This document shows positions 19,634 to 37,956 of a DNA stretch of 64,000 bases, piece by piece (the stretch's first letter is position 1; the number at the start of each line of letters is the position of its first letter). The translations under genes were made by a program, and so were the position numbers. Source of the stretch: Polynucleobacter sp. (GTDB lineage: Bacteria > Pseudomonadota > Gammaproteobacteria > Burkholderiales > Burkholderiaceae); contig NZ_JBBAQK010000010.1 in the NCBI RefSeq assembly GCF_040400325.1, positions 7,698 to 71,697 on the forward strand. The letters run 5' to 3'. Below the pieces are notes generated by a model. The model worked only from the letters and a program-made list of their open reading frames with translations, was not told where the DNA came from and did not search any database.

Positions 19634-21901
19634 CTATAGCGTTATGTCTGGCTCCTGCCTGACACAGTCAACGTAATACTCACTACGTCCATCAATCCCC
19701 GCTTTAACAAGACCGTGAATATCGGTTTCAAAGCCAGGAAACTTCTCATTAAAGTCTCGAGCAAAATATAGATAATCCACAATCCGCTTATTAAAGCGCT
19801 CCCCTGGAATCAGCAATGGAATGCCTGGGGGGTACGGAGTAACTAACATTGCGGTTACGCGACCCTCTAACTGATCTAATGGCACGCGATCGACCTCTTT
19901 ATGTGCCATCTTGGCCCAAGCTTCGGAAGGCATCATTGCAGGCACCATATCAGAGGTATACATTTCTGTTGTCATGCGAGCAACATTACGACCCTTATAG
20001 AACTCATGAATCTGTTGGCAAATATCCTTCAGACCAACGCGCTCGTAGCGTGGATGCTTCGCCACAAACTCTGGCAATACTTTCCACAAAGGTGCATTTT
20101 TATCAAAGTGGTCCTTAAATTGCTGCAATTCAGTAACAAGAGTATTCCAGCGGCCTTTGGTAATACCAATCGTGAACATGATGAAGAAAGAATACAAGCC
20201 GCACTTCTCAACAATCACACCATGTTCAGCCAAGTACTTGGTAACAATGCTCGCCGGTATACCCATTGAACCAAAGTTACCTTCAATATCTAGGCCTGGA
20301 GTAACCACTGTGGCTTTAATAGGATCAAGCATGTTGAAATCTTTGGCCAACTTACCGAAGTCATGCCAAGCGGCGGAGGGTTCCAAGATCCAATCTGAAC
20401 GCTCGCCAATACCTTCTTCAGTTAAATGATCTGGACCCCAAACCTTAAACCACCAGTCTGCACCAAACTTTTCATCTACTTCACGCATGGCACGCCGGAA
20501 ATCCATTGCTTCAGCGATAGACTCTTCTACAAGCGTAGTGCCACCGGGGGCCTCCATCATGGCCGCAGAGACATCGCAAGAAGCAATAATGGCGTACTGC
20601 GGACTAGTCGAGGTATGCATCAAGTAGGCCTCATTAAAGCAATCACGATCAAGCTTGTGCTCATCAGCATCCTGAACTAATACTTGCGATGCCTGGGATA
20701 AGCCAGCCAGTAATTTATGAGTAGACTGAGTAGCAAACGTCAGACTCTTTTTAGTGCGCTTGCGATCAGCACCAATGGCGTGCATATCTTTGTAAAAAGG
20801 ATGGAAGGTAGCATGGGGCAACCAAGCTTCATCAAAATGCAAAGAATCCACTTTACCGTCGAGCATCTCTTTAATCATCTCGACGTTGTAAATAATGCCA
20901 TCATAAGTGCTTTGCGTGAGTGTCATCACTCGCGGAACAACGTTTTTATTCTTAATAAATGGATTAGCATCAATTTTCTTTTTGATATTGGCCCACTCAA
21001 ACTCTTCTTTAGGAATTGGCCCAATAATGCCCAAGTGATTACGCGTAGGCATTAAGAAAATCGGAATGGCCCCCATCATGGTGATCGAATGAATAACTGA
21101 CTTATGACAGTTTCGATCTACTATTACGACATCGCCTGGCGCTACCGTAGAGTGCCAAACTATTTTGTTGGAAGTTGAAGTTCCATTTGTTACAAAGAAT
21201 AAATGGTCGGCACTAAAGATGCGGGCGGCATTACGTTCGCTTTGCAACACTGGTCCCGTGTGATCTAAAAGCTGCCCTAATTCCTCGACCGCATTACACA
21301 CGTCTGCACGCAACATATTTTCACCAAAGAACTGATGAAACATTCGGCCTACTGGGCTTTTTAGGAAAGCTACACCGCCTGAGTGTCCAGGACAATGCCA
21401 TGAATACGAACCCTCTGAAGCGTAATTTGTTAAGGCGCGGAAGAATGGCGGAGCTAATGAATCTAAATAAACCTTAGCCTCACGAATGATGTGACGCGCT
21501 ACAAATTCTGGGGTGTCTTCATTCATATGAATAAAGCCATGCAGCTCACGCAAAATATCGTTTGGCATATGGCGCGATGTGCGAGTCTCACCATATAGGA
21601 AGATTGGAATATCTTCATTGCGCTTACGAACTTCGGTAATGAAAGCACGCAGGTTATTTAAAGCTGGGAGATCGTGGTCTTCCGAATCAGAATCAAATTC
21701 TTCATCATCAATCGATACGATAAAGCTAGAGGCACGAGATGCTTGCTGAGCAAATGAAGTAAGGTCGCCGTAACTGGTCAAACCAATAACTTCCATTCCT
21801 TCGGTTTCAATAGCCTCTGCTAAATCGCGAATACCAGAGCCCGAAATATTTTCCGAACGAAAGTCCTCATCAATAATGATGATTGGGAAACGAAATTTCA
21901 T
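19634..21901 (-). CDS. PLP-dependent arginine/lysine/ornithine decarboxylase (fold type I, with wing domain)
   Basis: WHCPGHSGG, NGTSTSNK, DRNCHKS, HFDEAW, TQSTHKLL (PLP Lys), PYPPGIPL. Confidence 0.92.
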   Translation of the reverse strand: MKFRFPIIIIDEDFRSENISGSGIRDLAEAIETEGMEVIGLTSYGDLTSFAQQASRASSFIVSIDDEEFDSDSEDHDLPALNNLRAFITEVRKRNEDIPIFLYGETRTSRHMPNDILRELHGFIHMNEDTPEFVARHIIREAKVYLDSLAPPFFRALTNYASEGSYSWHCPGHSGGVAFLKSPVGRMFHQFFGENMLRADVCNAVEELGQLLDHTGPVLQSERNAARIFSADHLFFVTNGTSTSNKIVWHSTVAPGDVVIVDRNCHKSVIHSITMMGAIPIFLMPTRNHLGIIGPIPKEEFEWANIKKKIDANPFIKNKNVVPRVMTLTQSTYDGIIYNVEMIKEMLDGKVDSLHFDEAWLPHATFHPFYKDMHAIGADRKRTKKSLTFATQSTHKLLAGLSQASQVLVQDADEHKLDRDCFNEAYLMHTSTSPQYAIIASCDVSAAMMEAPGGTTLVEESIAEAMDFRRAMREVDEKFGADWWFKVWGPDHLTEEGIGERSDWILEPSAAWHDFGKLAKDFNMLDPIKATVVTPGLDIEGNFGSMGIPASIVTKYLAEHGVIVEKCGLYSFFIMFTIGITKGRWNTLVTELQQFKDHFDKNAPLWKVLPEFVAKHPRYERVGLKDICQQIHEFYKGRNVARMTTEMYTSDMVPAMMPSEAWAKMAHKEVDRVPLDQLEGRVTAMLVTPYPPGIPLLIPGERFNKRIVDYLYFARDFNEKFPGFETDIHGLVKAGIDGRSEYYVDCVRQEPDITL

Positions 21902-22648: not shown

Positions 22649-23488
22649 TCAGCTAATTTGACTAAAAAGGACTCGCTCAGGGGCGTTGTAGATCTCGAAG
22701 TGTTTGCCTGAGCAGCGGGACATGATGGTGAGATTGGTTTTACGGGCTAGTTCAAGACCCATCAAGGTCACGCCGGAGCGTGTCAGAAGAAAGGGGATCC
22801 CCATTTGAGCTCCCTTGATGACCATCTCGGAAGTCAAGCGCCCAGTGGTAAAGAAAATCAAATCCTTCCCAGGCTTATTCACTAGCCACATCAAACCAGA
22901 AATGGAATCTACCGCATTGTGGCGACCGACATCCTCAATAAAATATAAAAGCCTTACCTCTGCGTCGCCTTGCCTTTCAAAAACCGCGCAAGCATGGACA
23001 GAGCCAGACTTTTTATAAATCGTGTCATGAGAACGGATCGATTCAATTAGGCCAACAATTGCCTCTTGAGATAATGTTGGACCCTCTGGTAGCCGAGTCT
23101 GTGACATCTCCTCCATGAGACCACCAAACATTGTGCCTTGCCCACAACCAGTAGTGACGACCCTCTTACTAGTGAGAGCATCAATATCGACTGTACTGCG
23201 TCTTGTTTTCACTGCCGCTGAATCTGTATCCCAATCCACCTGGATGCTTTCAATATCACCTGGGGACTCAACCATCCGCTGATTACGCAGGTATCCGAGA
23301 ACTAAGGCCTCTGGGGCACTTCCCAAAGTCATCAAAGTCACGATTTCACGCTTATCCAAATAGATCGTCAGGGGGCGCTCTCCGGGTATATGGGTGAGCT
23401 TAAGACGCCCCATTTCATCCAATATTTCAACCTCATGCACCAAGGGCACGGAGGCATTTGACATCTGAATATTGGGCTTTACTGCCAT
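22649..23488 (-). CDS. fdhD: Formate dehydrogenase accessory sulfurtransferase FdhD
   Basis: ERPLTIYL, TTGCGQG, GSVHACA, EDVGRHNAVD, TGRLTSEMVIK. AGGA SD before ATG 23488. Confidence 0.9.
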   Translation of the reverse strand: MAVKPNIQMSNASVPLVHEVEILDEMGRLKLTHIPGERPLTIYLDKREIVTLMTLGSAPEALVLGYLRNQRMVESPGDIESIQVDWDTDSAAVKTRRSTVDIDALTSKRVVTTGCGQGTMFGGLMEEMSQTRLPEGPTLSQEAIVGLIESIRSHDTIYKKSGSVHACAVFERQGDAEVRLLYFIEDVGRHNAVDSISGLMWLVNKPGKDLIFFTTGRLTSEMVIKGAQMGIPFLLTRSGVTLMGLELARKTNLTIMSRCSGKHFEIYNAPERVLFSQIS

Positions 23489-23653
23489 AAAACGCTTTCC
23501 TATGGAGGTGTAAACCGAAGTTGATTGCTCATTATTGATCACCAATGGGGTATTACTTTAACTGCAGACTAAAATTAGTGCTCAATCAATGCATTAGACC
23601 CAGCATAATCCTAGATTAACCCTATTTAACTCTCTTATTAAAGTCCGCTTCAC

Positions 23654-25618: not shown

Positions 25619-27322
<1,704 letters not shown>

Positions 27323-27329
27323 TCTAAGA

Positions 27330-28262
27330 TTACAAGACAAAGAATTGCCCAACTTGTAAATTGAGTTCTTTGGCTAATTCAGCGCCACTGACTTTACCTG
27401 AGGCCCCTTTTGCTTTGAGGACTTCAATTTGACCTCCATGACAGGCAACAAAGAAAGAATCTAGGGTAATGGCAGTTATCTCTCCAGGCTTTCCTTTGAC
27501 CGCCCCAAACGTTGCGACCACATGCTTGTGGCAATCATAGATTTGCACTTTTTGCTCACCCAGCGTAGTCCATGCACCAGGCGCAGGATTACAAGCGCGT
27601 ATCAGGTTATAGATTTGGCTAATATGTATTGCCCAATGAATCTGTGCAGCATTGACATCAAACCAACCTTCGTAATTGGCTTGTGATTCATCTTGAGTGA
27701 TCTCTTGATGCTTGCCTGCTACCACTAGATCGGCTGCTTCTAGTAGCGCTTTCACACCAACAGGGAAAAGATGATCAAAGTAAATTTTGCCTAGAGTGTC
27801 ATCAGGCCCAATAGCCACTTCTTTTTGCAAAATCACTGGACCTTCATCCAGGCCGTCAGAAGGTCGGAAAATAGTTAAACCTGTTTTTTCTTCACCTAAA
27901 GCAATTGCCCAGTTAATCGCGCTCGGACCGCGATATTTTGGCAATAAAGATGGGTGATATTGAATCGTGCCGTGTTTAGGAATCTTGACGAGTTCTTGAG
28001 GCACAAATTGCAAGACATAAGCCATCACGCAGATATCGGCATTGCTATCTATCATGGCCTGAGCAGCATCAGGACCTTTGAGAGAGGAAAACTGCAAAGG
28101 GGTTAAGCCCTTTGCTAGTGCTGCCTCTTTGAGGACTTCGGGCTTAGTGGAATTAGGATTATCAGGCGGACAAAAAACAGCAACGAGCTCATTCCCACGA
28201 TCCAAAAAGGCCTCTAATGCTGCCTTACCAAAATCTGCACTCCCTATCAATGCAACCCGCAT
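27330..28262 (-). CDS. Formyltransferase-fold protein resembling the hydrolase domain of 10-formyl-THF dehydrogenase (would usually be auto-annotated as Fmt)
   Basis: HPSLLPKYRGPSAINW, DGLDEG, PAPGAW. Starts 1 nt after the frc stop. Confidence 0.8.
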   Translation of the reverse strand: MRVALIGSADFGKAALEAFLDRGNELVAVFCPPDNPNSTKPEVLKEAALAKGLTPLQFSSLKGPDAAQAMIDSNADICVMAYVLQFVPQELVKIPKHGTIQYHPSLLPKYRGPSAINWAIALGEEKTGLTIFRPSDGLDEGPVILQKEVAIGPDDTLGKIYFDHLFPVGVKALLEAADLVVAGKHQEITQDESQANYEGWFDVNAAQIHWAIHISQIYNLIRACNPAPGAWTTLGEQKVQIYDCHKHVVATFGAVKGKPGEITAITLDSFFVACHGGQIEVLKAKGASGKVSGAELAKELNLQVGQFFVL

Positions 28263-28263
28263 G

Positions 28264-29511
28264 TTAGATCACCTTATCATGACGTAGTGAAATCAACTCA
28301 TCAGTGGAATAACCTAATTCACTGAGAATTTCATCGGTATGCTCACCTAGTAAGGGCGAACGAGTAACCTCGGTTGGACTATCAGACATCTTGATAGGAT
28401 TACCTACGGTGAGATACTTGCCACGAATTGGGTGGTCCACTTCTACCACTGTGCCAGTAGCACGCAGCGCTGGCTCTTCAGCAATTTCTTTCATCGACAA
28501 AATAGGGCCACAAGGTATGTCGTATTGATTCAAGATATCCATGACTTCGAATTTATTTTTTGTCATGGTCCATTTTTCAATCTCGCCAAAGATTTCCATC
28601 AAGTGGGGTAAGCGTGCCATGGGTGAGGCAAAACGCAAATCAGCAATCCAATCTTCCCGACCGATTACCTTACAAACAGCTTCCCATACTGGCGCTTGAA
28701 TAATCACATACATATAGGCATTTGGATCAGTTTCCCATCCCTTACATTTCACAATCCAACCAGGCTGACCGCCGCTAGAGGCATTACCAGCACGGGGTAC
28801 CGCATCACCAAACTCACCATTTGGATACTGTGGGTACTCTTGCATCACACCAACACGCTCTAAACGCTGTTGATCACGCAATTTGACGCGGCATAAGTTC
28901 AATACAGCATCTTGCATTGCTGCTAATACTTTTTGACCACGACCAGAATGGGTACGCTGATATAAGGCAGTCACAATCCCTAAAGCTAAATGCAAGCCAG
29001 TACCACTATCGCCAATTTGCGCACCAGTGACCATCGGAGGGCCATCATCAAACCCGGTTGTCGAAGCAGAGCCGCCCGCGCATTGCGCTACGTTCTCGTA
29101 CACCTTGCAATCTTCGTATGGGCCAGGACCAAAACCTTTTACAGAAGCCATAATCATCATAGGGTTGAGCTCTTGAATCCGTTCCCAAGAAAATCCCATA
29201 CGATCTAAAGCACCCGGTGCAAAATTCTCAACCAGCACATCACACTCTTTAATTAAGCGCTCAAGAATTTCTTTACCTTTTTGAGTTTTGGTATTTACAG
29301 TAATCGAACGCTTGTTGTGATTGAGCATCGTGAAATACAAACTATCTGCATCAGGGATGTCACGCAATTGGCCGCGGGTTGCATCTCCTTCGCCTGATTT
29401 TTCTACTTTAATGACGTCAGCTCCGAACCAAGCTAGTAGCTGCGTACAAGTTGGTCCTGACTGAACATGAGTAAAGTCGAGGATTTTGACCCCTTCTAGG
29501 GCTTTTGCCAT
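28264..29511 (-). CDS. frc: Formyl-CoA:oxalate CoA-transferase, paralogue 2 (family III)
   Basis: [40 protein letters not shown] (catalytic Asp), [17 protein letters not shown]. Confidence 0.9.
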
Positions 29512-29622
29512 GATTTGCGTCCTAATAAGAATAAAATTTTGAATTGTGACAATTTTACCAGCGAGGAATCAGGCCAGTGAGAGCATGCCAAAATTTTGGG
29601 CAAAGACCGATGTAAAACCTAT

Positions 29623-30066
29623 TTAGGGCTCTATTTTGCTGGACTGAGGATTTTCAAGATCAGCAAGGCGCTTTTTCAAGGTCCGTTCCTCGGCAAAACG
29701 CTCAGTTTCATCGCGAATGACTGCCACCACTCCATTGGCATGATGGTTTTCATCGAATAGCATGCCGACCGTAAATGCAATGGATAGAGTACTGCCATCC
29801 TTGTGCCTGGCCGGAACTTTCAATACAGAAGCTCCATAGCGCGTGGTTCCAGTCAACATCGATTTACTGTAGCCCTCATTATGTCTGTGACGCTGACGCT
29901 CTGGCACGATTAAATCGACGGTATTACCAAGGGCCTCTGCTTCGGAATATCCAAAAATGCGGGTAGCCGCAGCATTCCACAGCACAATCTTTTCATTAGC
30001 ATCGGAAACAATAATGGCGTCTCCTATAGATTGAGCTAGGTGACTCAAATCGATATTCGTATTCAT
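29623..30066 (-). CDS. Stand-alone PAS-domain protein with no output domain
   Basis: DAIIVSD...IVLWNAAATRIFGYSEAEALG..VDLIVP (PAS); HKDGS (PAC); C-terminal coiled coil. 147 aa. Confidence 0.88.
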   Translation of the reverse strand: MNTNIDLSHLAQSIGDAIIVSDANEKIVLWNAAATRIFGYSEAEALGNTVDLIVPERQRHRHNEGYSKSMLTGTTRYGASVLKVPARHKDGSTLSIAFTVGMLFDENHHANGVVAVIRDETERFAEERTLKKRLADLENPQSSKIEP

Positions 30067-30072
30067 ATAGCC

Positions 30073-30078
30073 AGTCTA
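30073..30078 (-). promoter_or_regulatory. Putative extended -10 (TGa-TAGACT), 6 nt before the PAS gene ATG (leaderless candidate)
   Basis: Minus strand TGA-TAGACT-ggctat-ATG, downstream of the frc terminator. Confidence 0.5.
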
Positions 30079-30114
30079 TCAATATTTAGATTGCATCTAG
30101 TATTTTGAGGTGAG

Positions 30115-30142
30115 AAAAAAGGCGCCCACTAGGAGCGCCTTG
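30115..30142 (-). terminator. Intrinsic terminator after the oxc-frc operon
   Basis: Minus strand AAGGCGCTC-CTAGT-GGGCGCCTT followed by a T tract. Confidence 0.85.
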
Positions 30143-30161
30143 AAATGAATGCCTATTATTA

Positions 30162-31412
30162 CTAAACTGCTTTAGCTTCATGCAGCTTAGCAATTTCATC
30201 TTTGCCATAACCAAGATCAGTCAACACTTCATCAGTGTGCTCACCCAACACTGGTGAAGGCTTCACCTCAACCTCTAAATCAGAGAACTTGATTGGGCTA
30301 CCAATAGTTAAATACTTACCACGCACTTTGTGGTCAACTTCAACAATTGAACCGCTCTTACGCAAGTCTGGAGATGCAGCTAATTCCTTCATAGATAACA
30401 CTGGAGCGCATGGGATATCAAACTTACGCAGGATATCTACAGCCTCATACTTAGTCTTGTCTTTAAGCCAATCTTCAATCGTTGCGAAGATATCAAAAAT
30501 TTTATCTTGTCGAGCTTCAGCAGTCATGTACGCAGGATCAGTTGCCCATTCTGGCTTACCTAAAGCTGTAGTAATTGGCTCCCAAGCATGGCCTTGAATG
30601 GTGAAATAGATATATGCGTTTGGATCAGTTTCCCATCCCTTACACTTCAATACCCAACCTGGCTGACCGCCGCCACCAGCATTACCACCGCGTGGTACTA
30701 CATCAGAGAATGTGCCATGCGGGTACTGTGGATACTCTTCTAAATAGCCAATCTTATCTAAACGCTGCTGATCACGCAATTTCACGCGGCATAAGTTCAA
30801 TACTGCATCTTGCATTGAGCAAGAAACCTTTTGACCTTTGCCTGTTTTTTGACGTTGCATCAACGCAGTCAAAATACCGATTGCTAAATGCATACCAGTA
30901 TTAGAATCGCCCAAAGCTGCAGCAGAAACAGTCGGAGGACCATCCCAGAAACCGGTTGTTGAAGCAGCACCACCGGCACACTGAGCAACGTTCTCATACA
31001 CTTTTAAGTCTTCATATGAGTGGCCATCGCTAAAACCTTTTACTGATGCCAAAATCATTTTTGGATTGAGTTCTTGAATACGCTTCCAAGAGAAACCCAT
31101 ACGATCTAAAGCGCCAGGACCAAAGTTCTCAACCATGACATCAGAAACTTTGATCATCTTTTCTAATACTTCCTTACCCTCTGGAGTTTTGGTATCCAAA
31201 GTCAAAGAACGCTTATTACCGTTTAGCATAGTGAAGTACAAAGCATCTACGCCTGGGATGTCACGTAATTGACTACGAGTAACGTCGCCAGAACCTGGAC
31301 GCTCAACCTTAATCACGTCAGCCCCATAAAAGCCCAATAATTGAGTGCATGCAGGACCCGCTTGAACGTGGGTGAAGTCAATGATGCGAATACCGTCTAA
31401 TGGTTTAGTCAT
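30162..31412 (-). CDS. frc: Formyl-CoA:oxalate CoA-transferase, paralogue 1
   Basis: [26 protein letters not shown] (catalytic Asp), NAGGGGQPG tetraglycine loop. Confidence 0.95.
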
Positions 31413-31454
31413 GTTTATTTCTCCTTAAGTATTACGTATTTAGCTTTAGTAAAA

Positions 31455-33164
31455 TTATTTCTTAGCAGCTGCAGAAGATGGGTTTAAGTTTGTTAAACGC
31501 CCACTTTCAGTACCCGCAGTTTCATCAATAACAGCATTGATGAGGGCAGGTTTACCAGCAGCGATTGCTTCTGTTAACGCTACTTCTAATTCTGCTGGAG
31601 TAGTTACGTAGTAACCCACTCCACCAAATGCTTCGATCATCTTGTCGTAACGAGCATTTTTTACGAATACGGTCGGAGCAACATCAGCGCCGCCGGTTGG
31701 GTTCACGTCGGTGCCACGGTATACGCCGTTATTATTGAAAACAACTGTAGTGATTGGCAAGTTGTAACGGCAAATAGTTTCTAATTCCATGCCGCTAAAG
31801 CCAAATGCGCTATCGCCCTCGACTGCAACGGTTGGCAAGTTACTGATCACTGAAGCGCCAATCGCATAGCCCATACCAATACCCATAATGCCCCAGGTAC
31901 CGGAGTCAAAACGCTTACGCGGCTTATACATATTCACAATCGCACGGCAGAAGTCCAGCGTGTTTGCGCCCTCGTTTACTAAGTTCACATCAGGGTTCTT
32001 CTTAATCACATCACGAATCGCACGTAATGCCCCATGGAAGTTCATTGGACTTACGTCTTTGGCAAGTGTCTCTGCCATCTTCGCCATGTTCTTGTCTTTT
32101 TTCTCATTGATTGCTGAAATCCATTCAACGCTTGGCTTGGGAACAGAAGCAATGCCTTTTAACAATTCACCAACGCATGAACCAATGTCACCAATCAATG
32201 GTGCGGAAATTTGTACGTTGCTATCAACTTCATTGGCCTGAATATCGATCTGAATAAATTTCTTAGGCTCCTTGCCCCAGGTCTTGCCCTTTCCATGAGC
32301 CAATAACCAGTTCAAGCGCGCACCAATTAATAAGACTGTGTCAGCCTCTGCTAAAACAAACGAGCGGGCTGGGGATGCAGTTTGAGGATGATCATCTGGC
32401 AATAAACCTTTTGCCATCGACATTGGCAAGTAAGGAATACCAGACTTCTCGATCAAGTCACGGATCTCTTTATCAGCCTGCGCATAAGCGGCGCCTTTGC
32501 CCAAGAGAATCAATGGACGTTTAGCGCCTTTGAGTACATCTAATGCACGCGCTACAGCATCAGCTGCTGGAATCTGGCGCGGCACGGGATCGATTACTTT
32601 GAAAATAGACTTCTTTGCCTCTTCGGCTGGCATAGTTTGGGCTAATAACTGTGCAGGCAGGTCTAAATACACTCCGCCTGGACGACCTGAAACCGCAGCG
32701 CGAATGGCACGTGCAAAACCAATACCGATATCTTCAATGTGATTAATACGATAAGCTGCTTTACAATATGGCTTAGCAGCATTGAGCTGATCCATCTCTT
32801 CATAGTCGCCCTGTTGTAAGTCAACAATTTCACGCTCACTTGAGCCACTAATCAAAATCATCGGGAAACAATTCACAGTTGCATTGGCAAGTGCTGTTAA
32901 ACCATTTAAGAATCCTGGTGCAGAAACCGTCATACAAATACCAGGCTTTTGAGTCATGAAGCCTGCAATTGCTGCGGCATTACCTGCGTGTTGCTCATGA
33001 CGGAAACCAATAAAGCGTATTCCTTCAGCTTGAGCCAAACGACACAAGTCAGTTATTGGAATGCCAACCAGACCAAAAATAGTGTTGAGATCATTCGCTT
33101 TCAAAGCATCGATGACCAGATGAAAGCCATCAGTTAATTGTGTGTTTTGAGTATCTGTTGTCAT
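31455..33164 (-). CDS. oxc: Oxalyl-CoA decarboxylase (ThDP-dependent)
   Basis: [50 protein letters not shown]...NNNG, GTESG. Confidence 0.96.
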
Positions 33165-33289
33165 AGAAATTTTTTATACATTACAAAGGCTTATGCAGGG
33201 ACTAAATCCCTGTAGTGTCGCTTTCGCTATTGGTCTTCCATTAAGTTATTTATTGCATGCTGAGTTCAACCCAGCTTAGGCAGAGATGA

Positions 33290-33332
33290 ATATTAGGCTT
33301 GAGGAAGAGGATGATCATTGACTTCGGTCAAT
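33290..33332 (-). promoter_or_regulatory. Class II Crp/Fnr-type promoter of oxc: ATTGAC-N4-GTCAAT box (33317-33332) and -10 TAATAT (33295-33290)
   Basis: The palindrome resembles the FNR consensus TTGAT-N4-ATCAA. If the TANNNT hexamer is at -12..-7, the box centre falls at -41.5. Confidence 0.7.
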
Positions 33333-33366
33333 TTCCCCCAAATCCAGCGCCCCAAAGGGAAATTGT

Positions 33367-33984
33367 TTAGATAAAAAGCTCTTTATGCTTCGTTTTAAGG
33401 CGGCTCAAAGTCTCTGGTGAGAGGTTGAGGTAGGCTGCCAGCTCCTTTTTAGGGAGGAGCTCAAACAAGTTCTCATATTTTCGTAAGAAACGCTCTACCC
33501 GACCTGGAGCATCTAGCATATGCAAGGTAATGGTGTGAGCCATAATTTCACTCATCAGGCGCATTACCTCAAGCTCAAAAGTCTCCTTCAGAAGCTTATG
33601 CTCTTCCAGAAATTCAGCCCATTTTTTCATAGGCATGCGAGCCACACGGGTTTTGTTAACGCATGCAATACTGTAGGGGGCAGCCGTTTTAAGGCGCCAA
33701 GCAGCATAGCTAGTTTCGATATCTTTTTCGATAGCAAAACGCAAGATCATCTCTTTAGCGTCAGGACTAGAGACAATGCGCTTGAGAATACCGTCTAGAA
33801 CAAAGTATTGCTCCATCTGATGATCCCCTTGATGGAGCAATATTTCGGATTTTTTGAGATCTGATATCTCTAAAAGGCGCTCTAAATCAGCCATAACAGC
33901 CTGATCCAAGCTTTTAAGCACCGAATTTTGGCTCAACTGCAAGCGAATCAGGTTTTTTTCTGGGTGCCTATCTAATGCGGTCAT
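33367..33984 (-). CDS. Crp/Fnr-family transcriptional regulator
   Basis: cNMP-like domain (LLHQGD..YFVLDGILK) and HTH ELAAYLNLSPETLSRL (FNR-like ExxSR). No N-terminal Cys cluster. Confidence 0.9.
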   Translation of the reverse strand: MTALDRHPEKNLIRLQLSQNSVLKSLDQAVMADLERLLEISDLKKSEILLHQGDHQMEQYFVLDGILKRIVSSPDAKEMILRFAIEKDIETSYAAWRLKTAAPYSIACVNKTRVARMPMKKWAEFLEEHKLLKETFELEVMRLMSEIMAHTITLHMLDAPGRVERFLRKYENLFELLPKKELAAYLNLSPETLSRLKTKHKELFI

Positions 33985-34079: not shown

Positions 34080-34646
34080 TCAAATATTGCGATTCATGTT
34101 GGGGCAGTTAATGAGCTCAAACTCGCCAAAGCCAATAACGTACTCAGGCCAGTCATTTGCATCTTTTAAGACCTTCTGACCACTTTTCATTAAAAAATGA
34201 AGTGCTCGTATGACTCCTGCATGAGTAATCAAAATAATCTCATCAATACCCTCAAGCTCTAACAGCATTGATTTAATTCTATGAATAAACCCCTGAACAC
34301 ACTCCTCGCCACCAAAAAAATGGCTCGGGAACGATTGAACCCATGCATCAATTTCAGCCTTTGGAATATCGCTCCAAAGTACCCCTTCCCAAACGCCGAA
34401 ATTAAACTCGTTTAATCTGCAGTCACTTTGAACAATTGCGTTAGGTCTGAGTATCTGAATCGCCTTCGCTAGGGATAGAGATCGAATCAGGCCTGAAGAA
34501 TAAATTGGCAAATTCTCAGGCAACTGACCCGATAGAGATTGAGCCAAGGAATCCAATTGAGATCTGTCGATCTCTAGATCAAGTTGCCCATAGCAGACAC
34601 CACTAGCCACTAAAGGTTTTGGATGACGGACTACCCAAATCTTCAT
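34080..34646 (-). CDS. cobC: Histidine phosphatase family, putative alpha-ribazole phosphatase
   Basis: VVRH, YSSGLIRS, LNEFNFGVWEG, ITHAGVIR. Last gene of the cob operon. Confidence 0.75.
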   Translation of the reverse strand: MKIWVVRHPKPLVASGVCYGQLDLEIDRSQLDSLAQSLSGQLPENLPIYSSGLIRSLSLAKAIQILRPNAIVQSDCRLNEFNFGVWEGVLWSDIPKAEIDAWVQSFPSHFFGGEECVQGFIHRIKSMLLELEGIDEIILITHAGVIRALHFLMKSGQKVLKDANDWPEYVIGFGEFELINCPNMNRNI

Positions 34647-35455
34647 AAGGCAATGAATGAGGCTATAAGAAGTAGACCCAAATAAAAACCGACTTCTGTA
34701 ATTTGTTGAATAGCACCTAAAGCATCTCCATTGATCCCACCAAGCCTGCTATAAAAAATTCTAAGTAACAACAATAAAACAACTATGCTTGCAAAAATAC
34801 CACCTGCCCACACCCAGCTAGGGTAACAAAGATAAATAATTAAAAATAAAGTCGCGGTCCATAGAGCACCAACTGTAAAAATAGTGAGACGCGGACCGGC
34901 AAACATTGCTTTTGATTTAGAAGAAGATATATCCCCAGAGTAAGGAAGATATGTCATGGCAACTAATACTAAAAATCTGGAGAAGATACTTGCTGCAACA
35001 ATAGCAACAAATGTCAGTGATAAGCTGATCTGTGCAAGGGCTGACAAGAAGATAATTTTGCCCAAAATAGTGCAAATCAGCGCAACCGCTCCATAGGTGC
35101 CAACCCTAGAGTCCTTCATAATCTCAAGCGCTTTTTCTCGTGTTGTAGCGCCGCCCAGTCCATCAACTAAATCTGCTAGCCCATCCTCGTGCAAAGCCCC
35201 GGTAATTAATATTGAAGCAACAATTGCCATGAAGACAGAAACCCAATAATTAGCAACTTGATTTGGTAAAAGTATCATGAAAGTGATGAATACTATTGCT
35301 GTCAATAAACCTACCAGAGATCCGATTAAGGGTAAGTAAGCAGAAGATCGAGCCAAACGCTCCTCACTAAATCCTGCCCAAAGAGCCAATGTCCCGGTAA
35401 CCGGAATTCGAGTAAAGAACTGTATGGCTAATAAAAAGTGACGAAGTGGGTTCAT
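34643..35455 (-). CDS. cobS: Adenosylcobinamide-GDP ribazoletransferase
   Basis: QFFTRIP, TGALHEDGLADLVDG, IMKDSRVGTYG, GGINGDALGA. Confidence 0.93.
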   Translation of the reverse strand: MNPLRHFLLAIQFFTRIPVTGTLALWAGFSEERLARSSAYLPLIGSLVGLLTAIVFITFMILLPNQVANYWVSVFMAIVASILITGALHEDGLADLVDGLGGATTREKALEIMKDSRVGTYGAVALICTILGKIIFLSALAQISLSLTFVAIVAASIFSRFLVLVAMTYLPYSGDISSSKSKAMFAGPRLTIFTVGALWTATLFLIIYLCYPSWVWAGGIFASIVVLLLLLRIFYSRLGGINGDALGAIQQITEVGFYLGLLLIASFIAL

Positions 35456-36489
35456 GATTCGCGAGAAACACCGGCGGACTCAAAACTAGCCATCTCATTA
35501 AGGATTAAACTAGCAGACTGGATCAGCGGCCAAGCAATCATTGCGCCAGACCCCTCTCCCAGCCTAAGCTCTAAATCAATTAACGGCTTAGCTTTCAGAA
35601 TGTCAAGCATCAAGGCATGACCCTTCTCACCTGATTGATGGGTAAAAATGCAATAGTCCAATACAGCATGGTCAATCTTAGAGGCCACCAACACGGCAGA
35701 GCTTACGATAAATCCATCCACTAGTACTACCCTTTTCTCAGCAGCTGCTTTGAGAATTGAGCCGACCATAGTAGCTATCTCAAAACCACCTAATGCCGCC
35801 AAGACCTCAATTGGATCTTTTAACTGACAATGATGTTCAAGAGCTTCACAGAGTACCTGCGTTTTTCGCTTTATAGCCTCCGCATTCAACCCTGTCCCAG
35901 CACCAGTACACAAAGCAACATCTATATTTTCAAGTTTTGAAAATAGCAGGGAAGCCGCGGAGGTATTGCCAATCCCCATTTCTCCAAGTATCAGCACATT
36001 ACCAGGTAACTCCGCAACTACTTGCATACCACTTTCAATACATTGAATTGCCTGAACATATGACATCGCAGAATGCTTAGATGAATCTGCGGTGCCTTTG
36101 CCCACTTTTCGAATCAAAAGTTTCTCTCTAGGCTCAAAGTCGTGATTCACCCCGCAATCAACCACTGTCATATGAATTTGATGCTGACGTGCCAAAACAC
36201 TTACAGCCGCTCCATCAGCCAAAAAATTCTCAACCATCTGCCATGTCACATCACTTGGAAATGCAGATACTCCACGAGCAACAATTCCATGATCACCCGC
36301 ATAGACAACCAGCTGAGGGTCAATTAATTTTGGCTCTAATGTATGTTGAATTTGCCCAATCCTAATAGCTAATTCCTCAAGACGCCCTAAAGATCCAACA
36401 GGCTTCGTTTTATTGTCTATCTTTGCCTGCAGTGTAATTAATAATTCAGCATCTTTACAAGGTGTAATTTTTGGTAATGTAATGTTCAT
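35452..36489 (-). CDS. cobT: Nicotinate-nucleotide--dimethylbenzimidazole phosphoribosyltransferase
   Basis: KTKPVGSLGRLE, GDHG, GEMGIGNT, LGGFEIA, LRLGEGSG. Confidence 0.94.
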   Translation of the reverse strand: MNITLPKITPCKDAELLITLQAKIDNKTKPVGSLGRLEELAIRIGQIQHTLEPKLIDPQLVVYAGDHGIVARGVSAFPSDVTWQMVENFLADGAAVSVLARQHQIHMTVVDCGVNHDFEPREKLLIRKVGKGTADSSKHSAMSYVQAIQCIESGMQVVAELPGNVLILGEMGIGNTSAASLLFSKLENIDVALCTGAGTGLNAEAIKRKTQVLCEALEHHCQLKDPIEVLAALGGFEIATMVGSILKAAAEKRVVLVDGFIVSSAVLVASKIDHAVLDYCIFTHQSGEKGHALMLDILKAKPLIDLELRLGEGSGAMIAWPLIQSASLILNEMASFESAGVSRES

Positions 36490-36495
36490 CAGATC

Positions 36496-37956
36496 CTACT
36501 GGACAAGGGTTTGGAAATAACCGGGGTCAACCGTAATACTTTGCTGCAGATGCAATGCCAGGTTATTAAAGACTGCTTCTAAGGGGGTGGATTCACTACT
36601 AAATAAAGCTTGAATGACATTTTCATTTTCAAATAAGCCATGTAAATAAATCCCTAAAATATTTCCCTGAGAGTTGATCCAAGCACAATCAGGTAATAAC
36701 TCAATTGCAGTATTGGACACGCCATTAATCTCTATTATTTCCGTTTTGCCATGATGAATTTCATAGCCAGAAATATCAAGAAAAGATAAGGCCATCCAAA
36801 GTCCAGGTACAGAACCAAACCTTATTTCAGATTTTTTTACGAGCTTATCCTGTTCGAAGCGAGTTTTTATTGGGAGTAATTGAACTCCCTCCCCCGTGCC
36901 ATCTATACAGTAGGGATCCTCCAATAAGTAGCCCAACATCTGTAGGCCGCCGCAGATTCCTAAAATAGATTTTCCTGCACTAGCATGAGCAAGAATACGC
37001 TTATCAATCTGTTGATTTTTTAACCAACTTAAATCTGAGCTCGTATGCTTTGAGCCTGGCAGGATAATCAAATCAACATCCTGTATATCGGATGGACTCT
37101 TGACCCAAGATAAATTTATATTTGACATATTTTTCAATGCCTGAAATTCATCTAGATTACTTATATGGGGATAAACAACAATAGCAATACTAAAGGTTGC
37201 GTTGTTCCTAGCAATTAAATTTGCATCGAACACACCATCCTCCTCAGGTAATCCGTGATCAGGCAACATAGGTACAACCGCTATAACCGGAACCCCACAT
37301 AATTCGCTTAATTTCTCAGGTCCTGGCGATAGTAACTTAGCGTCACCCCTAAATTTATTTAACAGAAAACCTGAAATAAGGGATTGATTCTCTTCTCCAA
37401 GTAACATCCAGGTTCCATAAAGATGGGCAAATGCTCCGCCGCGATCTATATCTGTGACTATCAAGCAGCGTGCACCTACATGGCGCGCAACTCTCATATT
37501 CACAATATCGCTAGACATCAAATTAATTTCAGCGGGTGATCCGGCTCCCTCAATAACGACAATATCGTTTCTTTCAACTAACCAGTCTAATGAGGCCTGA
37601 ATCTCAGGCCAGACTTTTTCTGATCTCTCCCGCCATGGAACTTTTGAGAGTTCTTGGTTTACCTTACCTAATAAAATGACCTGACTTTTATTGTCAGCCT
37701 CAGGCTTAAGAAGAACAGGATTCATTTGCACAATGGGCTCTACATTTGCAGCCAATGCCTGGAAATATTGAGCAGATCCAATCTCTCCCTGATGAATTCC
37801 GATGCCAACTACACGAGCATTGTTACTCATATTCTGCGCTTTAAAAGGCGCAACTTTATACCCAAGCTGCACATATATCCGACACAATGCTGTGGCAATC
37901 CAGCTTTTTCCAGCTCCGCTTGAGGTGCCTAAGACCATAATGCACTTGGCTGTCAT
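36496..37956 (-). CDS. cobQ: Cobyric acid synthase
   Basis: GTSSGAGKS, FKAQNMSNN, EGAGSPAEINL, DIDRGG, GICGGLQMLG, YLHGLF. Confidence 0.94.
   Translation of the reverse strand: MTAKCIMVLGTSSGAGKSWIATALCRIYVQLGYKVAPFKAQNMSNNARVVGIGIHQGEIGSAQYFQALAANVEPIVQMNPVLLKPEADNKSQVILLGKVNQELSKVPWRERSEKVWPEIQASLDWLVERNDIVVIEGAGSPAEINLMSSDIVNMRVARHVGARCLIVTDIDRGGAFAHLYGTWMLLGEENQSLISGFLLNKFRGDAKLLSPGPEKLSELCGVPVIAVVPMLPDHGLPEEDGVFDANLIARNNATFSIAIVVYPHISNLDEFQALKNMSNINLSWVKSPSDIQDVDLIILPGSKHTSSDLSWLKNQQIDKRILAHASAGKSILGICGGLQMLGYLLEDPYCIDGTGEGVQLLPIKTRFEQDKLVKKSEIRFGSVPGLWMALSFLDISGYEIHHGKTEIIEINGVSNTAIELLPDCAWINSQGNILGIYLHGLFENENVIQALFSSESTPLEAVFNNLALHLQQSITVDPGYFQTLVQ

Follow-up and report, generated by a model that had tools for sequence, protein, structure and literature searches.

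In the usual teaching, oxalate is broken down in a closed cycle of two enzymes, formyl-coenzyme A (formyl-CoA):oxalate CoA-transferase (Frc) and oxalyl-CoA decarboxylase (Oxc), with formate and CO2 as the only carbon outputs. In a stretch of 64,000 nucleotides (nt) from Polynucleobacter sp. (contig NZ_JBBAQK010000010.1 of assembly GCF_040400325.1; hereafter the window), the genes for these enzymes share a minus-strand module with a further gene, here called FT, whose product is a free-standing bacterial formyltransferase of 310 amino acids. Databases label FT as methionyl-tRNA formyltransferase (Fmt), but it is a different, widespread enzyme, and one that probably transfers formyl groups, reversibly, between CoA and tetrahydrofolate (THF).

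The nearest described systems make such a reaction plausible. The N-terminal domain of eukaryotic 10-formyl-THF dehydrogenase (FDH, or ALDH1L1) is accepted as carrying formyl between a pantetheine thiol and folate N10. It is part of a three-domain fusion with acyl carrier protein-like and aldehyde dehydrogenase domains, in which formyl passes to the enzyme's own 4'-phosphopantetheine arm and on to CO2; in vitro, mercaptoethanol can also serve as the accepting thiol (PMC4388273; PMC6802093). With CoA as the thiol, two cases are on record. LctF of Streptomyces lactacystinicus, a free-standing Fmt-like formyltransferase, was reported in January 2025 to convert 10-formyl-THF and CoA to formyl-CoA in vitro, as followed by liquid chromatography-mass spectrometry (PMC11730586). 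In HypX (HoxX; structures 6j0p and 6j1f), the N-terminal domain has the formyltransferase fold, HypX binds THF, and the domain is proposed to pass formyl from N10-formyl-THF to CoA (PMC6802093).

Searched against solved structures, FT finds its best matches in the FDH N-terminal domains of human, rat and zebrafish (2bw0, 1s3i and 4qpd; E 4e-49 to 4e-47, 164-171 bits), which bears out the likeness to ALDH1L1 given in a preliminary description of this DNA; matches to Fmt (8e-37, 130 bits), ArnA (3e-32) and HypX (1e-9) are weaker. The motifs quoted in that description are all present in the translation (PKHGTIQYHPSLLPKYRGPSAINW, TIFRPSDGLDEG, PDDTLGKIYFDHLFPVGVK, ANYEG and PGAWTTLGEQK). Like the FDH domain, FT has a two-subdomain fold, a His/Ser/Asp triad and a QF(I/V)P loop, and lacks the asparagine of Fmt. 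Its predicted catalytic triad, His103/Ser105/Asp139, corresponds to His106/Ser108/Asp142 of FDH and is at least 98% conserved among 55 family members. Folate-contact positions are likewise kept in the family - the QF(V/I)P loop (QFVP in FT), R111 and Y197 - and the ligand contacts seen in the zebrafish domain (Gln88-Phe89, Arg114, Gly140-Leu141 and Tyr200 in FDH numbering; PMC4388273) are retained in FT. Genuine FDH fusions were found only in the eukaryote clade (FDH representatives P0212 and P0272 carry the Aldedh domain); a search of long representatives for Rosetta-stone fusions yielded none that was genuine in the FT clade, only chimeric or over-called open reading frames (ORFs). Since FT is a free-standing enzyme and sits in an oxalate operon, free CoA or formyl-CoA would be its thiol partner.

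Domain models place FT in the superfamily (PF00551 Formyl_trans_N, 103.1 bits against a cut-off of 26.1; PF02911 Formyl_trans_C, 57.1 against 21.1) but below the cut-offs of every NCBIfam model compared: Fmt equivalog TIGR00460 (155.4 bits against 201.5), PurN (55.6 against 150), PurU (24.9 against 286) and ArnA (136 against 777). At the position of the N-x-H motif of Fmt, FT reads Gln101-Tyr-His103, so that the motif is indeed absent, as had been noted from the letters. Aligning 55 family members with 7 FDH-type sequences, 11 further bacterial relatives and 19 of Fmt shows the first position of this motif, before the catalytic histidine, to be glutamine in 96% of the family, asparagine in 19/19 Fmt and isoleucine in animal FDH. 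A maximum-likelihood tree of 137 sequences, with supports from the SH-like approximate likelihood-ratio test (SH-aLRT), puts FT in a clade of 65 rows (SH-aLRT 99), nested in a superclade of 100 rows (SH-aLRT 98) together with the eukaryotic ALDH1L1 N-domains; canonical Fmt forms a separate clade. The comparison of phylogeny and profile scores that the preliminary description had suggested thus came out on the side of the FDH-like domain.

That description had also named the possibility that FT is the only Fmt of its genome, and this we reject. A true fmt was found in 18/18 congeners and in 30/31 relatives, at 232-324 bits, and some 12-14 of the 18 congeners have a paralogue of about 155 bits besides it. 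No fmt above the cut-off was found in the window's own assembly. In a complete congener, however, the locus (L169, G002:C1:2152000-2170000) reads rsmB-htpX-fmt-def-dprA-topA...mnmE, and def, topA, htpX and mnmE are undetectable in the window's assembly too, which is 92.8% complete in 54 contigs. Because the region includes essential genes, the missing fmt is an assembly gap; with the whole fmt-def-topA region absent, gene absences in this genome cannot be read as losses. The second Fmt-like match in the genome proved to be a formyltransferase of ArnA type, encoded within an arn operon on contig C1.

In Polynucleobacter the module is compact and comprises six genes, in the order crp-like regulator, oxc, frc1, PAS, frc2 and FT, with FT last:

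27330-28262, minus strand: FT, a stand-alone FDH-N-like formyltransferase of 310 amino acids with Formyl_trans_N and Formyl_trans_C; candidate formyl-CoA:THF formyltransferase.
28260-28275, minus strand: frc2-FT junction, with a Shine-Dalgarno sequence (AAGGTGA) within the end of frc2, then TAA, 1 nt and the ATG of FT.
28264-29511, minus strand: frc2, formyl-CoA transferase of the FT-partner subtype (TIGR03253, 730 bits, cut-off 504).
29623-30066, minus strand: PAS-only protein of 147 amino acids, a single FixL-like sensory-box PAS domain between frc1 and frc2.
30162-31412, minus strand: frc1, canonical formyl-CoA:oxalate CoA-transferase (TIGR03253, 728 bits).
31455-33164, minus strand: oxc, oxalyl-CoA decarboxylase, the formyl-CoA source (NF006721, 1012 bits, cut-off 557).
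33367-33984, minus strand: Crp/Fnr-like regulator with a cyclic nucleotide-binding (cNMP) domain, found beside the module in most loci.

The two ORFs of the preliminary description lie exactly at the positions that it gave. The upstream one is an frc, as previously called, and FT begins 1 nt past its stop: on the minus strand the junction reads ...ATC TAA c ATG CGG..., with AAGGTG 7 nt 5' of the FT start codon, an arrangement in which frc2 and FT are likely to be translationally coupled. At its other end FT stops 7 nt from the convergent panC, its two neighbours being frc2 and panC. The proteins of frc1 and frc2 are 64% identical.

Synteny of the module is complete at 80 Polynucleobacter loci. 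FT is intact in 80/80, and frc2 lies 4 nt upstream of it in all 80 loci that reach upstream. These loci came from a contig scan with the FT protein alone, which returned Polynucleobacter only and was used for synteny. Such conservation could be simple inheritance, and sampling was therefore widened beyond the genus. Among 301 genomes of the order Burkholderiales, FT orthologues are present in 59, at 51-65% identity and well apart from Fmt-level matches at about 33%. Loci were compared from at least 13 GTDB families within the order, 38 in all; 36 of them have FT directly downstream of frc, usually with oxc (70-77% identity) and a Crp-like regulator. Samples of 400 genomes from the class and 400 from the phylum added 10 genomes with orthologues of 42-52% identity, 8 of which show the order thiamine diphosphate (ThDP) enzyme, frc, FT. 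Taken together over the three sampling levels within Pseudomonadota, 44/48 loci have the orthologue (42-65% identity) directly after frc and by a ThDP enzyme of the formyl-CoA-forming kind.

The association with frc/oxc that the preliminary description had proposed to survey is very strong and extends across classes. Scored over the 301 genomes (TIGR03253 above cut-off), FT and frc are both present in 54, FT alone in 5, frc alone in 13 and neither in 229 (Fisher p 5e-41, with kinship between genomes ignored); all five of the FT genes that lack an frc lie at contig ends. The pair also persists amid changing neighbours: oxc or a second type of ThDP enzyme, a Crp-like or a GntR regulator, a tripartite tricarboxylate transporter (tctCBA) or a major facilitator superfamily transporter of OFA/OxlT type. 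Other variable neighbours are a PanE2-like reductase, an NAD-dependent formate dehydrogenase and malate-thiokinase-like and lyase-like genes. Neighbour counts in high-GC loci rest on tblastn, the ORF filter table having mis-called antisense shadow ORFs there.

Two of these variations bear on function. In several lineages (loci L125, L126, L134, L138, L139, L147, L156 and L159-L163) the oxc slot holds a ThDP enzyme that has just 24-28% identity to Oxc and whose nearest solved relatives are a 2-hydroxyacyl-CoA lyase (HACL; 7pt3, 284 bits) and an HACL/Oxc-type enzyme (8vzk, 276 bits). Its substrate may be oxalyl-CoA or a 2-hydroxyacyl-CoA; the HACL/Oxc-type family, like Oxc, makes formyl-CoA. Second, fhs, the gene for formate-THF ligase, lies within 10 kb of FT in 8 loci and immediately beside it in three (L159, L166 and L167). 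In one of these (L166:2264-4942) fhs and FT form a pair with a 6-nt gap, with neither frc nor oxc within 10 kb. The neighbours thus fall into two sets, those that produce or consume formyl-CoA and the one that produces 10-formyl-THF.

In a further group of loci (L127, L128, L130, L145, L146, L153 and L160), SucCD-like (malate-thiokinase-like) and HpcH/citrate-lyase-beta-like genes and a small conserved gene, c25, lie near FT, sometimes with an NAD-dependent formate dehydrogenase. Such clusters hint at glyoxylate or serine-cycle-type assimilation beside the oxalate module.

Because its neighbours make or use formyl-CoA or make 10-formyl-THF, and its best solved relatives transfer formyl from N10 to a thiol, we favour for FT the reversible reaction formyl-CoA + THF <-> 10-formyl-THF + CoA, which on the strength of homology and gene neighbourhood we consider probable; its substrates and direction are what we infer here. 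In a mechanism modelled on those of FDH and HypX, the QF(V/I)P and DGLD loops, both conserved, would hold folate, and His103, Ser105 and Asp139 would orient and activate the formyl carbonyl; CoA, through its pantetheine thiol, would accept or donate formyl in the role that FDH gives to its 4'-phosphopantetheine arm. Presumably co-expressed with Oxc, which makes formyl-CoA, and Frc, which uses it, FT would couple the oxalate-derived formyl-CoA pool to the one-carbon (C1) pool of folate.

The preliminary description called this a possible undescribed route, which holds in part. The chemistry itself is known, shown for LctF and proposed for HypX, in both cases in the opposite direction, from 10-formyl-THF to formyl-CoA. 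LctF shares with the proposed activity of FT a free-standing enzyme and the same reaction, but belongs to secondary metabolism, feeds a polyketide synthase loading module, is reported in the one direction only and has no oxalate context. HypX is a distant relative (template modelling (TM) score about 0.69) with a His/Asp/Asp triad rather than the His/Ser/Asp of FT; it is fused to an enoyl-CoA-hydratase-like decarbonylase, holds CoA as a prosthetic group and serves CO-ligand synthesis for [NiFe] hydrogenase, whereas FT has no extra domain. We found no published description of an enzyme of this kind from primary metabolism or the metabolism of oxalate, and a primary-metabolism family tied to oxalate appears to be undescribed even though the reaction is not new.

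Residues peculiar to the FT clade (Gln9, Lys13, Arg22, Lys283 and Lys285) were considered with CoA in mind. Gln9 and Lys13 fall in the beta1-alpha1 loop and match HypX residues 9-15 by primary-sequence position, not by superposition; in HypX, Arg9, Ser12 and Gln15 contact the CoA diphosphate (PMC6802093). As a possible CoA-binding signature, the clade-specific basic residues K13, R22, K283 and K285 are suggestive only.

Several points weigh against the proposed activity. Within FT, no demonstrable binding site for CoA (its ADP-3'-phosphate) was found. An AlphaFold2 model of FT is of high confidence (pLDDT 93), but Foldseek TM-scores are 0.81-0.92 for ArnA, the FDH N-domain and Fmt alike, slightly higher for Fmt; the modelled fold confirms membership of the superfamily only and does not discriminate function. 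The function proposed rests on homology and neighbourhood, and the likeness to LctF is one of reported reaction. The neighbourhood evidence is guilt by association, and many of the sampled loci are related by descent. A distant relative in a neighbouring clade (P0133, locus L158, 43% identity) has no frc/oxc context, and the wider superclade is functionally mixed; ten relatives without linkage to frc, from Chloroflexota and marine metagenome-assembled genomes, carry only the label 'methionyl-tRNA formyltransferase'. Lastly, if FT ran towards 10-formyl-THF, it would drain formyl-CoA and break the CoA-conserving Frc cycle, so that the benefit of such a harvest is uncertain: every formyl-CoA passed to THF would deprive Frc of a CoA donor, and oxalyl-CoA would have to be re-made from another thioester.

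As to direction, we lean slightly towards this harvest of formyl-CoA into 10-formyl-THF, the reverse, in which FT would supply starter formyl-CoA to an autocatalytic Frc/Oxc cycle, being nearly as likely. Formyl transfer from a thioester to an amide should be downhill by about 10 kJ/mol, by our own estimate from textbook values. Only 6/61 Polynucleobacter genomes have fhs (PF01268), and neither fhs nor a PurU-like match was seen in the window's own, incomplete assembly; with the ligase mostly absent from the genus, FT would be the only direct path there from oxalate C1 units to folate. The harvest direction would thus do for formyl-CoA what Fhs, an ATP-dependent ligase of unrelated fold, does for oxalate-derived formate, namely yield 10-formyl-THF. 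The preliminary description had spoken of a supply of C1 units without the ATP-dependent ligase; the lack of fhs in 55/61 genomes agrees with this, but the account is incomplete in that another thioester would have to pay. Genes for an NAD-linked formate dehydrogenase (C1:521405-525383) and for a PanE2-like reductase (C5:130535-131509) are present in the window's assembly.

Priming of the cycle is favoured by other considerations. The Frc/Oxc cycle is autocatalytic in a labile thioester, and both LctF and HypX offer an analogy in running from 10-formyl-THF to formyl-CoA. YfdE/UctC, an acetyl-CoA:oxalate CoA-transferase, is thought to prime the Frc/Oxc cycle and would in this respect be a functional analogue of FT, although it is a class III CoA-transferase of unrelated fold; no yfdE-like gene was found in the FT clusters. 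FT is last in its operon and least represented in transcripts by contig depth, a weak measure. Acting in sequence, Fhs and FT would turn formate into formyl-CoA at the expense of ATP.

The Frc encoded next to FT (frc2 of the window and the partner frc genes of L121-L168) is a distinct subtype with three differences from canonical Frc:

Around the catalytic Asp: residues in the FT-partner Frc differ from those of canonical Frc (E. coli YfdW, frc1).
GFWDGPP motif: the FT-partner Frc lacks the Trp (GFDDGPP in frc2), which canonical Frc has.
Glycine loop: altered in the FT-partner Frc (NASSGGQ in frc2); GGGGQ in canonical Frc (NAGGGGQ).

In Burkholderiales, TIGR03253 scores are 543-627 bits for the partner subtype and 700-743 for canonical Frc, and genomes with canonical Frc only have no FT (G116, G242, G289, G191, G248 and G087). 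The substrate specificity of the partner type may differ from that of canonical Frc. In one genus (g40; L171-L173) a partner-type frc is kept in the syntenic slot, and both the ThDP enzyme and FT are absent; the order there is fdhA, fhs, tctCBA and partner-type frc, followed by the PP2C and FHA genes that normally lie downstream. The absence of the two looks like joint loss.

A dedicated Frc partner raises a bolder reading, which we hold tentatively and judge rather unlikely: FT and the partner Frc would carry out a linear, folate-linked catabolism of oxalate (or of a 2-hydroxyacyl-CoA), in which formyl-CoA from Oxc or from an HACL-like lyase is discharged onto THF at catabolic flux instead of being recycled onto oxalate. 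The 10-formyl-THF would be assimilated by way of FolD and serine or, in loci with a neighbouring fhs, yield formate and ATP by reversal of Fhs. Were it true, it would add a new branch of oxalotrophy, either energy-conserving at substrate level or assimilatory.

Turning to activities other than CoA-folate transfer, it is unlikely that FT is a 10-formyl-THF-dependent N-formyltransferase or carrier loader acting during oxalate growth on an amine metabolite or on the phosphopantetheine arm of a carrier protein. The superfamily has repeatedly taken up new acceptors, as in ArnA, sugar N-formyltransferases and the F-domains of nonribosomal peptide synthetases, and the C-terminal OB-like domain binds macromolecular or nucleotide ligands in relatives. 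A census of 47 loci, however, found no carrier protein, aminotransferase or amino-sugar gene conserved nearby, the only constant partners being those that make or use formyl-CoA or make 10-formyl-THF.

Somewhat less probable again is a thiol-dependent 10-formyl-THF hydrolase, which would release formate and THF, regulate the pool of folates and leave CoA without a part; the preliminary description had raised hydrolysis as an alternative. The isolated N-domain of FDH acts in this way in vitro, the closest solved relatives are named 'hydrolase domain', the triad is identical, and the window's assembly offers no PurU-like match. The operon already yields formate as its main product, though, so that making more of it from folate makes little sense, and hydrolysis by the FDH domain is thiol-dependent and taken to stand in for transfer to 4'-phosphopantetheine (PMC4388273). 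A hydrolase would also leave it unexplained why FT is so closely linked to frc, oxc and HACL-like genes.

That FT is a formyl-CoA thioesterase or CoA-salvage enzyme with no folate turnover is very improbable: its place after Oxc and Frc would suit such a role, and labile formyl-CoA could trap CoA, but the folate-contact residues and loops are as strongly conserved as the triad, and the adjacency of fhs points to folate. That FT is a second methionyl-tRNA formyltransferase, as annotated, is scarcely credible, for although it shares with Fmt the Formyl_trans_N and Formyl_trans_C architecture and the HxSLLPxxRG core, has Fmt as its top NCBIfam match by E-value, reaches TM-scores of 0.92 against Fmt structures and comes from an assembly with no canonical fmt, it reaches 155 bits where the cut-off is 201.5, has glutamine for the invariant asparagine, falls outside the Fmt clade, coexists with true fmt in 18/18 congeners and 30/31 relatives, never adjoins def as fmt does, and belongs to an assembly whose gap takes in def, topA and mnmE as well.

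About one fifth of the sampled Burkholderiales genomes (59/301), along with scattered Gamma- and other Proteobacteria, add to the Frc/Oxc pair a third conserved gene, mislabelled as Fmt in every database, and its recognition would correct a systematic mis-annotation. If FT does transfer formyl between CoA and THF, it would provide a direct, ligase-independent bridge from oxalate C1 units to the folate pool, which matters for the abundant freshwater Polynucleobacter, mostly without fhs and living on products of humic-matter photo-oxidation. FT may also account for the starting or refilling of the autocatalytic Frc/Oxc cycle. For synthetic biology it would be a natural, apparently soluble single-subunit link between formyl-CoA pathways of the HACL/FORCE type and THF-based assimilation of formate.

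Around the module, cobalamin genes flank the side away from panC (lower-ligand cobC-like, cobS, cobT and cobQ directly upstream, 34080-37956), and an FdhD-like formate dehydrogenase accessory gene (22649-23545) and a large Orn/Lys/Arg decarboxylase (19634-21901) lie within a few kb. A small PAS-only gene also follows oxc-frc1 in another genus (L140:17575-18051), and the PAS-only protein may be a sensor partner for the oxalate module. Lake metatranscriptomes (X1-X4, compared with window positions 27000-33400) contain Polynucleobacter-like transcripts of the module; such contigs indicate presence, not regulation. In one freshwater set the summed contig depth, a weak measure of transcripts, is in the thousands for frc1 and oxc, in the hundreds for frc2 and in the tens for FT. 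Metatranscriptome contigs cover FT, and one of them (X1) crosses the frc2-FT junction.

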